Assembly (NCBI GenBank): GCA_038734615.1
Contig: JAVYOH010000003.1
Location: forward strand, 2,070 to 26,069
Reading direction: 5' to 3'
DNA from: Saccharolobus sp.
Lineage (GTDB): Archaea > Thermoproteota > Thermoprotei_A > Sulfolobales > Sulfolobaceae
DNA length: 24,000 nucleotides
Every line of letters starts with the position of its first letter. Position 1 is the first letter of the stretch. This document shows, piece by piece, positions 11,356 through 13,990 of the stretch. The position numbers and the translations under genes were made by a program. The notes beneath the pieces are model-generated. The model saw only the letters and a list, made by a program, of their open reading frames with translations. It was not told where the DNA came from and ran no database searches.

Positions 11356-12072
11356 ATGCCCATATCGTATGAGACACTAACGAAATTTATCGGCCAAAAA
11401 ATTAAGGATGTATATGGAAGGGAGGCAGGGTACTTGGTCCATATATATAGTGAAATTGATGGAAGTATCACGGGTATAGAAATCTCCCAAGGATTTTCTT
11501 TTACTACAATAGGTCCGGATAGGGTTAAGATTGATGGGGAATCAATATTGATTTTGCCAGATTGGAAATCGGAGGCTATAAGAATACTAAGCCTCATGGA
11601 AAAAATTAGAAGGAGACAAAAAGCTCTAGAAGAATTATATAATAAGCAAGAGATTCCAAAGAGTGAGTACGATGAAATGAAAAGGAAATTGGATAGTGAA
11701 ATGATAAAGTTGAAAGATGATCAAAGTAAACTAAAGAGTAGATTGAAGTCTAGACTTAATGAGATAGAGGATCAATTATCCCATATAGACAAAGCTATAA
11801 TCTCATTAAAAATGAGCTATATTTCTTCAGAAATTCCAGAGAGTGCATATAAAAACTCTATGGAAGTATTAAGGCAGTCAAGAGAAAGTTATACTTTAGA
11901 AAGAGATGATATAAAAAAGACTTTAGATAAGTTAGACTCGCTAGACAAAGAGAGTATAGAACTTAAGCCTTTAGGCTCCTTAACTACACAACAGCAAGGT
12001 GAGACAAAGACCGAACAACCTAAATCGGAAATACCATTACCAATACCGGTAAAGGTAATAAATACTCTCTAA
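11356..12072 (+). CDS. cdvA: Cell division protein CdvA
   Basis: [44 protein letters not shown] is the PRC-barrel-like N-terminus known from Sulfolobus CdvA. A long coiled coil follows ([39 protein letters not shown]...), then a short hydrophobic C-terminal peptide ([13 protein letters not shown]) in the position of the ESCRT-III-binding (E3B) tail. The track start at 11317 sits inside the TATA box, so I prefer 11356. Confidence 0.85.
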
Positions 12073-12090
12073 CTAAATTAGTGAGTTAGA

Positions 12091-12867
12091 ATGATAGAAA
12101 AGTTACCATTTATTTTTAACTCAGAGAAAAGGCGGAAGGCTCAACTAGGTAAGATACTTACTGAAATTTCACTTAAACTAAAAGATCAACAAACTAGATT
12201 AGAAGAAGCGATAAGAAGATTAAAAGATAGGGATAAAGAATTATTTGAAAAGGTAGTTAGAGCTCAGGTAGAAGGTGATGATGCAAAGGCTAAAATATAT
12301 GCGCAAGAGATAGCAGATATTAGAAGAATAATTAAGGTTATTTACACAGCATTTTTAGCTATAGAAAAAGTAAGATTAAAATTAGATACAGTACAAGAGC
12401 TACAAGGAGTTTCGCTAGTACTATATCCAGTAGCTAAAATTTTAGGAGATCTAAAAGATCAAATAAAGGGAATAGCTCCAGAGGTTGCAATCGCATTAGA
12501 TTCTATTATAAGTAGTGTTAACGGAATAGCCGTAGAAACAGGGGGTATAAATGAGAGGGGGATAATCCCATCTGCAGTAGATGAACAAGCTAGGCAAATT
12601 TTAGATGAAGCACAAAAAATGGCTGAAATAAAGGTAAAGGAACTATTGCCAGATTTGCCTCATCCACCAGCTGATAAGATAAGATTGCCTCAATCTAAGC
12701 AAACAGTAAAAAGAATAACAGAGAAGGATTTACTAGACTACATAGTAAATAATGGTGGATTTCTAGACCTAGAACATTTTAGCAGATTGCATGGGGTAGA
12801 AAAGCAAGATGTGATTAGGCTGCTTGAAGAGATGCAAAATAAAGGTCTAATAGACGTTAAGAGCTGA
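12091..12867 (+). CDS. cdvB: ESCRT-III homologue CdvB (Snf7-like core plus C-terminal winged helix)
   Basis: A helical-hairpin Snf7-like N-terminal region is followed by the proline-rich MIM2-like stretch [17 protein letters not shown] (about 12641-12700). The C-terminal region [41 protein letters not shown] is winged-helix-like. The gene sits between cdvA and the Vps4 homologue. Confidence 0.88.
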
Positions 12868-12868
12868 T

Positions 12869-12874
12869 AGGTGA
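12869..12874 (+). promoter_or_regulatory. Shine-Dalgarno-like motif for cdvC
   Basis: AGGTGA lies 6 nt upstream of ATG 12881. It is complementary to the conserved archaeal 16S 3' end and typical of internal operon genes in Sulfolobales. Confidence 0.5.
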
Positions 12875-12880
12875 AGACTG

Positions 12881-13990
12881 ATGAGTGCACAAATAATGCT
12901 TGAGGATATGGCAAGAAAATATGCTATATTGGCCGTGAAAGCTGATAAAGAGGGTAAGGTAGAAGATGCTATAACGTATTATAAAAAAGCTATAGAAGTA
13001 TTAAGCCAAATTATAGTTTTATATCCAGAATCTGTAGCTAGAACTGCGTATGAGCAGATGATAAATGAATATAAGAAAAGAATAAGCTATTTAGAAAAAA
13101 TCTTACCAGCAACTGATTCTGAGAATAAAGATGATAATGAAGATATAATCATAACTGAAAAACCAAAAGTTAAATTCAGTGATATAGTAGGTCTTGAAGA
13201 CGTAAAGGAGGCATTGAAAGAAGCTATAATATATCCAACCAAGAGGCCAGACTTATTCCCTTTGGGATGGCCTAGAGGAATTTTATTATATGGCCCGCCA
13301 GGCTGTGGAAAGACTATGATAGCTGCAGCTGTAGCAAATGAAATAGATTCAATTTTTATACAACTGGATGCAGCATCAGTAATGTCTAAATGGCTTGGAG
13401 AAGCAGAAAAAAATGTAGCAAATGTATTCAAAACTGCTAGAGAGGAGTCTAAGAAGCAAAATAAACCTGCAATAATATTCATAGATGAACTTGATGCATT
13501 ATTAGGTGTTTATTCTACAGAAGTGGGAGGAGAAGCTAGAGTAAGAAATCAGTTCTTAAAAGAAATGGATGGTCTCTTAGATAAGTCAGAAAACTATAAA
13601 GTGTACGTTATAGGTGCAACTAATAAGCCTTGGAGACTAGATGAGGCCTTTTTAAGGAGATTTCAGAAGAGAATTTACGTAACTTTACCGGATTATGAAC
13701 AACGAATTTCATTGTTTAAATATTATCTATCTAAAGTTAAATTAGCAGATGATGTAAACATTAATGAATTAGCTAAACTCACCGAGGGATACACTGCTAG
13801 TGATATTAGAGATATAGTACAATCAGTTCATATAAAGGTAGTTAAGGAAATGTTTAAAGATAATTTAGCGGAACCTAGAGCAATTACTATGCAAGATTTT
13901 AAGGAGATATTAAAGGTTAGAATGCCAAGCGTTAATCCAGAACTAATAAAAGCATATGAAGTATGGACTGAGAAGTTTAAAGCATTATGA
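12881..13990 (+). CDS. cdvC: Vps4-like AAA+ ATPase CdvC (MIT domain plus AAA domain)
   Basis: The N-terminal MIT-like three-helix region is [33 protein letters not shown]. Walker A GPPGCGKT (13292-13315), Walker B IIFIDELD and the second region of homology [22 protein letters not shown] are present. Confidence 0.93.

Follow-up and report, generated by a model that had tools for sequence, protein, structure and literature searches.

A main cdv locus with cdvA, cdvB and cdvC from a Sulfolobaceae archaeon represented by MAGs

Sulfolobus-type archaea (TACK) divide by means of the Cdv system, an ESCRT-III/Vps4-based cytokinesis machinery that serves as a model for the origin of membrane scission in eukaryotes. 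Its founding description is said to be that of the S. acidocaldarius genes Saci_1374/1373/1372, by Lindas and by Samson in 2008, and the S. solfataricus cdvA, cdvB and cdvC genes are presumably SSO0911/0910/0909. [quoted passage not shown] CdvB binds lipid via its own N-terminal helix, and direct membrane binding by CdvA is now questioned (PMC12818579). Among the ESCRT-III paralogues, only CdvB carries a C-terminal winged helix, which is described as “broken” and is completed by the E3B strand of CdvA (PMC5840170, PMC12909875).

We analysed a 24-kb stretch of archaeal DNA (hereafter the window). At positions 11356-13990 it almost certainly carries cdvA, cdvB and cdvC as the main cdv locus of a Sulfolobaceae member represented by metagenome-assembled genomes (MAGs). 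The initial annotation, which presented this system as established rather than new, was right. The locus is a textbook cdvABC copy, its proteins are 82-96% identical to S. islandicus or S. solfataricus chains with published structures, and identical proteins have already been deposited in NCBI Sulfolobaceae MAG assemblies; in GCA_038877235.1, for instance, the locus is on contig JAVYXB010000001.1. Structures, biochemistry and genetics have been published for its orthologues, and nothing new is added by this copy. Its practical value is that of a confident annotation anchor for a Sulfolobaceae genome, and it offers one more natural variant showing fixed interface residues (E3B tail, MIM2 and CdvA filament contacts).

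Judged by sequence, the closest relatives among the compared proteins are those of Saccharolobus. S. islandicus REY15A and S. solfataricus present the same cdvA-cdvB-cdvC order and a CdvA of the same length (238 aa), while CdvB is here one residue shorter than the 259 aa reported for S. islandicus. Identity to the S. islandicus/S. solfataricus proteins amounts to 82% for CdvA, 93% for the CdvB core, 72% for the winged helix, 96% for MIT and 89% for the ATPase. The MIM2 core LLPDLPHPP is that of S. islandicus CdvB, the E3B tail is identical, and a putative aCcr1-box precedes cdvA as well. The only differences from Saccharolobus are ordinary orthologue divergence and a lower G+C (about 32%), the source being an uncultured Sulfolobaceae MAG lineage. 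S. acidocaldarius has the same three-gene locus and the same domain architecture but is more distant, its MIT chain (2w2u) being matched with 93 bits (E=5e-26) versus 150 for Saccharolobus. The S. acidocaldarius MIM2 RELLPELPHPP (residues 183-193), a peptide that has been co-crystallised with MIT (PMC12818579, PMC5840170), differs from the version found here only by R->K and E->D.

The five-helix fold and MIT-MIM2 docking are in common with eukaryotic ESCRT-III/Vps4 (Snf7, Vps2, CHMP, Vps4; PMC12818579), and eukaryotic Vps4 is likewise a single-cassette AAA+ ATPase with a Vps4_C helix. Unlike in eukaryotic ESCRT, however, genes for ESCRT-0, -I and -II are absent here. Recruitment would rely on an archaea-specific protein, CdvA, with its PRC domain, coiled coil and E3B tail, and on a broken winged helix that is fused to the ESCRT-III protein itself.

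Gene identities and domain architecture

The ORF list of the window contains three co-directional frames on the + strand (11317/11356-12072, 12091-12867 and 12881-13990), with intergenic gaps of 18 nt (cdvA-cdvB) and 13 nt (cdvB-cdvC), in exact agreement with the three closely spaced same-strand genes described initially. For the first frame, the in-frame ATG at 11317 sits within a TATA-like element, TTATAAAT (11311..11318, + strand), and the sequence MPISYE encoded from 11356 aligns with MPVSYE, the start of the solved S. islandicus CdvA chain. We therefore placed the start of cdvA at 11356. The identification as cdvA-cdvB-cdvC was borne out by all three NCBIfam equivalog models, whose cut-offs were exceeded, and by the Pfam domains; the profiles for CdvA, Snf7, MIT, AAA and Vps4_C were all matched, and no result spoke against the assignment. 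NCBIfam equivalog models and PDB chains were used in place of reciprocal best hits against Saci_1372-1374. Matches to solved Cdv protein chains reached 1e-110 to 1e-187, which, like the Pfam E-values, is far beyond chance, and the alignments are gap-free at 82-96% identity for CdvA, the CdvB core and MIT. These results show the gene identities and the domain architecture; the residues and motifs known to make the contacts between the Cdv proteins are all conserved as well.

The product of cdvA (11356..12072, + strand; 238 aa) scored 419.3 bits against NF041007 (cut-off 350), its residues 2-236 covering profile positions 1-235 of 235, and 152 bits against PF18822 (E=8.5e-45, cut-off 30). It is identical to S. 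islandicus CdvA (9s9g) at 195 of 238 positions over its full length without gaps, and the PRC-barrel-like N-terminus and long coiled coil noted initially correspond to the fold of that chain. Since a Pfam search of the N-terminus with E-values up to 0.1 returned no PRC-barrel family, the PRC domain (N-terminal ~70-85 residues) was assigned by homology to the 9s9g crystal structure. The three-helix coiled coil spans residues 86-204 (Pfam CdvA) and is followed by a flexible linker. Six hydrophobic residues of the longitudinal interface of CdvA are required for filament formation (PMC12818579), and all six are conserved here (A90, L94, I100, I149, M153 and I156). The short C-terminal peptide was found to be the E3B tail (residues 226-238, nt 12031-12069, + strand). 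It is identical to that of S. islandicus CdvA, is conserved as xPxPIxxxVINTL in loci L007-L009, and is predicted to be the E3B peptide for the winged helix of CdvB.

For the product of cdvB (12091..12867, + strand; 258 aa), the NF041008 model gave 432.9 bits (cut-off 370). The score against Pfam Snf7 (PF03357) passes its gathering score by a narrow margin (28.1 vs. 27.3 bits), which is offset by 93% identity (180/193, without gaps) to S. islandicus CdvB (9s9j), a chain solved by crystallography as a canonical ESCRT-III fold. This agrees with the Snf7/ESCRT-III-like helical protein of the initial annotation. A putative N-terminal membrane-binding segment (residues 1-15) nearly matches S. islandicus MFDKLPFIFNNEKRRK, with a computed hydrophobic moment of only 0.40 (moderate). 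The five-helix ESCRT-III core extends up to about residue 182 and the proline-rich MIM2 (residues 183-193, nt 12637-12669, + strand) comes directly after helix alpha-5, with the motif LLPDLPHPP at residues 185-193, as anticipated. After a linker, residues 208-258 (nt 12712-12864, + strand) match the S. solfataricus winged-helix chain 2xvc_A (36/50, 72%, E=3.7e-19), and PF27303 (CdvB_HTH) is recorded on an identical MAG protein. The proposed C-terminal winged helix is therefore present and can be refined to a “broken” winged helix.

The product of cdvC/Vps4 (12881..13990, + strand; 369 aa) matched NF041006 end to end (670.6 bits, cut-off 650). Its Pfam domains were above their cut-offs (MIT, 2.3e-10, 40.8 bits; AAA, 9.9e-38, 130 bits; Vps4_C, 9e-07, 29.2 bits), and AAA_lid_3 is also present. 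The MIT domain (residues 1-78) is identical to that of S. solfataricus 2v6y at 75 of 78 positions (96%) without gaps and is followed by a linker. Identity is 256/288 (89%) to 4lgm, a chain named “Vps4 AAA ATPase” that we take to be from S. solfataricus, and 282/362 (623.6 bits) to 4lcb. The single AAA+ cassette (residues 134-268) has intact catalytic motifs, namely Walker A GPPGCGKT (138-145), the pore loop KWLGE (170-174), Walker B IIFIDE (198-203), sensor-1 N248 and the arginine fingers R259 and R260. It is followed by a lid and then by the Vps4_C helix (residues 322-366). MIT, one AAA cassette and Vps4_C are the Vps4 architecture that had been proposed.

Conservation of the locus and the cdvA promoter region

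Nine other loci, Stygiolobus sp. among them, share the cdvA-cdvB-cdvC order, and the gap between cdvA and cdvB is 18 nt in all nine. Three of these loci are diverged, with CdvA and CdvC only 65-75% identical and CdvB 49-69% identical. Six MAG contigs encode the same CdvA, and these contigs as well as locus L008 show the flanking enolase and small membrane ORF. The contig search with CdvA relies on exact peptide words, and the three loci it found are neither from Saccharolobus nor from S. acidocaldarius. Synteny is thus conserved. Three antisense ORFs (11304-11597, 12738-12914 and 13087-13482) were rejected as genes. None of them is listed as a gene on those six MAG contigs, and in AT-rich sequence (~32% GC) such open frames have probably arisen incidentally. 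Over the whole window, an Rfam scan at the gathering threshold gave no match and a tRNA scan found none. A sigma-70 scan of the window gave fewer promoter-like sites than in shuffled controls, this model being unsuited to an archaeon, and the lone intrinsic “terminator” was discarded, as it lies inside cdvC and the scan is uninformative for an archaeon.

The TATA-like element TTATAAAT lies ~40 nt upstream of the cdvA ATG, and the block CTT.TAAAT is kept in loci whose CdvA is only 65-69% identical. From this position and the published layout of the cdvA promoter (PMC9976878), it would be the cdvA promoter element. The 5'UTR of cdvA (11342..11355, + strand) comprises a Shine-Dalgarno-like TGAGG (11342-11346) and then a putative aCcr1-box of 9 nt, AGTATTACC (11347-11355, + strand, matching on both strands), which abuts the ATG. 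An aCcr1-box has been reported before cdvA, and S. acidocaldarius saci_1374 (cdvA) carries one (PMC9976878). The box found here stands at the published position, immediately ahead of the cdvA start codon, and does not vary among distant relatives, the sequence TTTGAGGAGTA[T/A]TACC-ATG being unchanged in L007-L009. Since the window as a whole shows no enrichment of DRTRDTAC, the degenerate aCcr1 pattern (39 matches vs. 37 expected), it is position and cross-genus invariance that argue for the box.

Predicted role and alternative readings

The mechanism was assigned by homology to characterised Sulfolobus and Saccharolobus proteins; the sequence of its steps, the contacts between the proteins and their regulation would be as described in the literature. 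Transcription would begin with cdvA, which has its own promoter and would later be silenced when aCcr1, a ribbon-helix-helix repressor, binds the start-codon box. CdvA would polymerise via its PRC and coiled-coil domains into double-stranded filaments marking mid-cell, and its E3B strand would insert into the broken winged helix, thereby recruiting and probably stabilising the ESCRT-III protein CdvB, which would also bind the membrane via its N-terminal helix. The CdvA/CdvB ring would template CdvB1 and CdvB2, encoded elsewhere. A CdvC/Vps4 hexamer, its MIT domain docked on the MIM2 of CdvB, would then extract CdvB with ATP; the proteasome would degrade CdvB, and CdvB1 and CdvB2 would constrict and cut the membrane. 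The initial annotation spoke of a membrane-remodelling and scission apparatus. The cdvABC genes are not the whole of such an apparatus, because constriction and scission belong to CdvB1 and CdvB2 and a second ESCRT-III gene (CdvB1/B2) was found neither in the 24-kb window nor in the 12.7-20.7-kb loci. No ftsZ was seen in these sequences either.

The scheme of recruitment by CdvA would not hold if the ESCRT-III gene were CdvB1, CdvB2 or CdvB3 instead. The protein does match S. acidocaldarius CdvB2 (9s97) with 109 bits and the CdvB1/B2 model with 140.5 bits, but the latter score is far under the cut-off of 350, that of the CdvB3 model is 46.1 bits (cut-off 170), and the CdvB model reaches 432.9 bits (cut-off 370). 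Moreover, the gene is placed between cdvA and cdvC, and its product has a full proline-rich MIM2 ending in PHPP and the winged helix that sets CdvB apart from its paralogues (PMC5840170, PMC12909875). Equivalog scores, solved-chain matches and motifs together refute a paralogue identity, whose probability we consider negligible. Nor is there much in favour of a general AAA+ unfoldase (Cdc48/p97 or PAN) merely adjoining coiled-coil genes. Strong partial matches of the AAA cassette to CDC48 (220 bits), PAN (194 bits) and p97 chains (~310 bits) are those expected for a classical-clade AAA; the CDC48 and PAN matches span only the single cassette (residues about 84-367) and reach a quarter to two-fifths of the cut-offs (219.8 vs. 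802.65 and 194 vs. 500, respectively). The CdvC model, by contrast, gave 671 bits, and the best PDB matches are CdvC/Vps4 chains (624 and 575 bits), so that the ATPase is closest to Vps4, as first proposed, rather than to Cdc48 or PAN. Its single AAA cassette is combined with an N-terminal MIT (96% identity to 2v6y) and a Vps4_C helix; on family criteria, Cdc48, with two AAA cassettes, and PAN, with its N-terminal coiled-coil/OB domain, were both rejected, and an unfoldase is extremely improbable.

In Sulfolobales, the formation of vesicles and the release of certain viruses have been connected with ESCRT-III/Vps4 proteins too. A further reading is that the locus serves mainly other ESCRT-type roles (extracellular-vesicle budding, virus egress) rather than cytokinesis. 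Such extra roles are compatible with the sequence, and evidence connecting Cdv proteins with classical ESCRT pathways has been reviewed (PMC5840170). In model species, however, they are additions to the work of the same machinery and not alternatives to division. The cell-cycle repressor box in the 5'UTR of cdvA is conserved, and formation of the division ring has been demonstrated for proteins near-identical to the ones encoded here. We therefore regard a locus devoted mainly to vesicles or viruses as very improbable, and retain its reading as the main cdv locus.

The cdvA 3' end and the upstream sRNA candidate

Two transcription units, cdvA and cdvB-cdvC, have been reported, according to Samson 2011 as cited in PMC5840170. 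A candidate internal promoter and ribosome-binding region for cdvB-cdvC (12054..12084, + strand) was found at the 3' end of cdvA. It consists of GGTAATAAATACT (12054-12066, + strand), inside the E3B codons, and a Shine-Dalgarno-like AGTGA (12080-12084, + strand) upstream of cdvB, both invariant in five loci. In four diverged loci, 7 of the 9 amino-acid-invariant codons among the last 14 codons of cdvA are nucleotide-identical, versus 14 out of 104 elsewhere in cdvA (Fisher p=8.5e-5). This excess of synonymous-site conservation would fit a separate cdvBC transcription unit, with GGTAATAAATACT as its putative promoter. In addition, a Shine-Dalgarno-like GGTGA (12870..12874, + strand) precedes the ATG of cdvC by 6 nt, as would suit a gene situated internally in a cdvB-cdvC transcript. 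The final ~40 nt of cdvA may have two jobs, coding for E3B and carrying the cdvB-cdvC promoter (GGTAATAAATACT), which would explain both the near-frozen synonymous sites across genera and the fixed 18-nt gap.

The cdvA promoter is closely preceded by a conserved C/D-box sRNA candidate, whose transcription could be coupled to this cell-cycle-regulated promoter or insulate it. This link and the dual-purpose cdvA 3' end are tentative readings of the wiring of the locus rather than of its proteins, and we consider them rather unlikely.

In all 10 sequences examined, the sRNA candidate ends ~13 nt upstream of the TATA element of cdvA. Complements of its segments AGGTTAAAAGCG and GTATCCACTTG in rRNA or tRNA would predict sites of 2'-O-methylation.

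Identity of the three genes

The initial annotation placed three co-directional Cdv genes at 11356-13990. We found them as + strand ORFs coding for proteins of 238 (11356-12072), 258 (12091-12867) and 369 aa (12881-13990), with intergenic gaps of 18 nt (cdvA-cdvB) and 13 nt (cdvB-cdvC). The G+C content of this region (~32-34%) is similar to the rest of the window and its positive GC skew agrees with the coding strand. In Pfam, the first protein matches the CdvA coiled-coil domain (E=8.5e-45), and the third MIT, AAA, AAA_lid_3 and Vps4_C. The second matches Snf7 at 28.1 bits, narrowly above the gathering score of 27.3, with a weak MarR-type helix-turn-helix match at residues 211-256. 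The NCBIfam equivalog models for CdvA (419.3 bits vs. a cut-off of 350), CdvB (432.9 vs. 370) and CdvC (670.6 vs. 650) are all matched end to end. This NCBIfam result is decisive for the identity of cdvA, cdvB and cdvC; the proposed CdvA, Snf7/ESCRT-III and Vps4-type assignments, the last with its MIT domain, are thus borne out.

Other members of these families were also considered for the second and third proteins. The second reaches 140.5 bits as CdvB1/B2 (cut-off 350) and 46.1 bits as CdvB3 (cut-off 170), and both were rejected. For the ATPase, a Cdc48 or PAN identity would have been the alternative to Vps4, but its scores (CDC48, 219.8 bits vs. a cut-off of 802.65; PAN, 194 vs. 500) fall far under the cut-offs, and p97/Cdc48 chains reach only ~310 bits vs. 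624 for CdvC/Vps4.

We then compared the proteins with solved chains. CdvA aligns without gaps to S. islandicus CdvA 9s9g (195/238 identical, 82%) and the CdvB core to 9s9j from the same organism (180/193, 93%) (PMC12818579). The CdvC MIT domain is 96% identical (75/78) to S. solfataricus MIT 2v6y and also matches 2w2u, a MIT chain from S. acidocaldarius that was crystallised in complex with the MIM2 peptide of CdvB (PMC5840170). The CdvC ATPase shares 256 of 288 residues (89%) with 4lgm ("Vps4 AAA ATPase"), and the full-length protein 282 of 362 (78%) with 4lcb ("CdvC, Vps4"). Judged by these identities, the window lineage is closest to Saccharolobus. The locus is a correctly identified copy of the already known Cdv system, and its description as established rather than new holds: structures have been solved for proteins that are 82-96% identical, and public assemblies already contain these sequences. 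The only mildly new angles are a cdvA segment possibly doubling as a cdvBC promoter and a conserved C/D-box sRNA candidate beside the cdvA promoter.

Functional residues and the division scheme

CdvA combines a PRC domain with a three-helix coiled coil and makes antiparallel double-stranded filaments; mutating A90, L94, I100, I149, M153 and I156 abolishes polymerisation (PMC12818579). All six residues are conserved in the window CdvA. Its 13-residue C-terminal E3B peptide (residues 226-238) is identical to the S. islandicus tail and is conserved in three loci where CdvA is just 65-69% identical. In CdvB, the LLPDLPHPP motif reported earlier was located at residues 185-193, within a proline-rich MIM2 (residues 183-193) followed by a linker and the winged helix; the S. 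acidocaldarius MIM2, RELLPELPHPP, has the same residue numbers. The C-terminal winged helix of the initial annotation is present (36/50 identical, 72%, E=3.7e-19 to S. solfataricus CdvB 2xvc; PMC5840170), but it is a "broken" one. The CdvB N-terminus closely resembles its S. islandicus counterpart, with only a moderate computed hydrophobic moment (0.40), and corresponds to the 15 N-terminal residues whose deletion abolishes liposome binding by S. acidocaldarius CdvB. CdvC carries Walker A (GPPGCGKT), Walker B (IIFIDE), pore loop 1 (KWLGE), sensor-1 (ATN) and the arginine fingers (RR).

Our analysis addresses gene and domain identities, the dynamics being taken from the literature (PMC12818579, PMC12909875, PMC5840170, PMC9976878). 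According to this scheme, cdvA would be expressed first and CdvA filaments would define mid-cell. Whether CdvA itself binds membrane is now in doubt (PMC12818579). The E3B strand would complete the broken winged helix of CdvB, recruiting and probably stabilising CdvB, whose N-terminal helix would also bind membrane. The CdvA/CdvB ring would template CdvB1 and CdvB2; the Vps4/CdvC MIT domain would bind MIM2, leading to CdvB extraction and proteasomal degradation, and CdvB1 and CdvB2 would perform constriction and abscission. Finally, the cell-cycle repressor aCcr1 would repress cdvA. No gene for the constricting paralogues CdvB1 and CdvB2 was found in the 24-kb window, so the three genes, proposed as a scission apparatus, represent its template and remodelling part.

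Candidate regulatory elements around cdvA

The cdvA start is at 11356, as first placed, because the upstream in-frame ATG (11317) lies inside a TATA-like element, TTATAAAT (11311-11318, +), and the S. islandicus chain MPVSYE aligns with MPISYE at 11356. Between this element and the start, a Shine-Dalgarno-like TGAGG (+) just precedes AGTATTACC (11347-11355, +), a candidate aCcr1-box fitting the consensus A(T/G)G(A)TA(G)A(T/G)TACN. EMSA and ChIP-seq showed aCcr1 to bind this 9-bp box, which is reported, at a conserved position, in cdvA promoters/5'UTRs across Sulfolobales (PMC9976878). TTTGAGGAGTA[T/A]TACC-ATG is invariant across the diverged loci. The degenerate motif is not enriched window-wide (39 matches vs. 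37 expected); the argument for the box therefore rests on position and conservation.

A candidate archaeal C/D-box sRNA (11245-11299, +) ends ~13 nt upstream of the TATA element. On the + strand, it comprises a C box (ATGATGA, 11249-55), a 12-nt guide (AGGTTAAAAGCG), a D' box (CTTA, 11268-71), a C' box (ATGATGA, 11276-82), an 11-nt guide (GTATCCACTTG) and a D box (CTGA, 11294-97). Scans of the window gave no tRNA gene and no Rfam match at gathering score; a relaxed Rfam scan of this stretch returned C/D-box families only, led by sR1 (36 bits, under the gathering score of 45; E=5e-8 in a 181-nt search). The window and 9/9 related loci share this box layout and spacing, with a D' guide that is kept between genera.

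cdvA and cdvB-cdvC have been reported to form separate transcription units, the former being induced ~30 min before the latter (Samson 2011, cited in PMC5840170). The final ~40 nt of cdvA, including GGTAATAAATACT (12054-12066), show almost no nucleotide variation. Among the last 14 codons, which encode the E3B tail, 7 of the 9 amino-acid-invariant codons are also nucleotide-identical in four diverged loci, vs. 14 of 104 elsewhere in the gene (Fisher p=8.5e-5). Shine-Dalgarno-like sites precede cdvB (AGTGA, 12080-12084, +) and cdvC (GGTGA, 12870-12874, +). These features all fit the two reported units. Since synonymous sites are near-frozen across genera and 10/10 sequences have a cdvA-cdvB spacer of exactly 18 nt, the alignment suggests an overlapping DNA element at 12031-12090 (+), probably the cdvB-cdvC promoter (GGTAATAAATACT), which would be embedded in the E3B codons.

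Genomic neighbourhood

The exact CdvA sequence occurs on 23 contigs; the six listed come from NCBI assemblies whose accessions (GCA_0388…, JAVZ…/JAVY…) are MAG-style. Gene order is common to all six: glycine-cleavage genes, enolase and an 83-aa membrane ORF (minus strand) lie upstream of cdvA, and the minus-strand genes downstream of cdvC encode a type IA topoisomerase, subunit Rpb6/K of RNA polymerase, an aminotransferase and a 2-hydroxyacid dehydrogenase. CdvA and CdvB are 100% and CdvC 99-100% identical to those of the window. Scanning species-representative genomes with CdvA gave three loci, two assigned to a Sulfolobaceae archaeon and one to Stygiolobus sp., which keep the cdvA-cdvB-cdvC order and the 18-nt gap (identity: CdvA, 65-69%; CdvB, 49-69%; CdvC, 73-75%).

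The topoisomerase (673 aa, Toprim + Topoisom_bac; 14016-16037, -) converges on cdvC, with no obvious oligo-T terminator in the 25 nt between the stop codons; in Stygiolobus sp., unlike in the window, cdvC does not have this neighbour. The 83-aa ORF (10934-11185, -), between enolase and cdvA and on the strand opposite cdvA, codes for a putative membrane protein that contains two hydrophobic stretches and for which no Pfam family is recorded. An 82-aa ORF holds the equivalent position in Stygiolobus sp. (5584-5832 of its locus, L008) and is 42% identical; this conserved adjacency to cdvA is the sole hint of a tie to division. In addition, a PAC2 (proteasome assembly chaperone) family gene (3465-4274, -; 2111-2869 in the related locus L001) lies beside the glycine-cleavage genes, ~7 kb upstream of cdvA. 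Its proximity is worth noting because CdvB turnover is proteasome-dependent, but is probably a coincidence.
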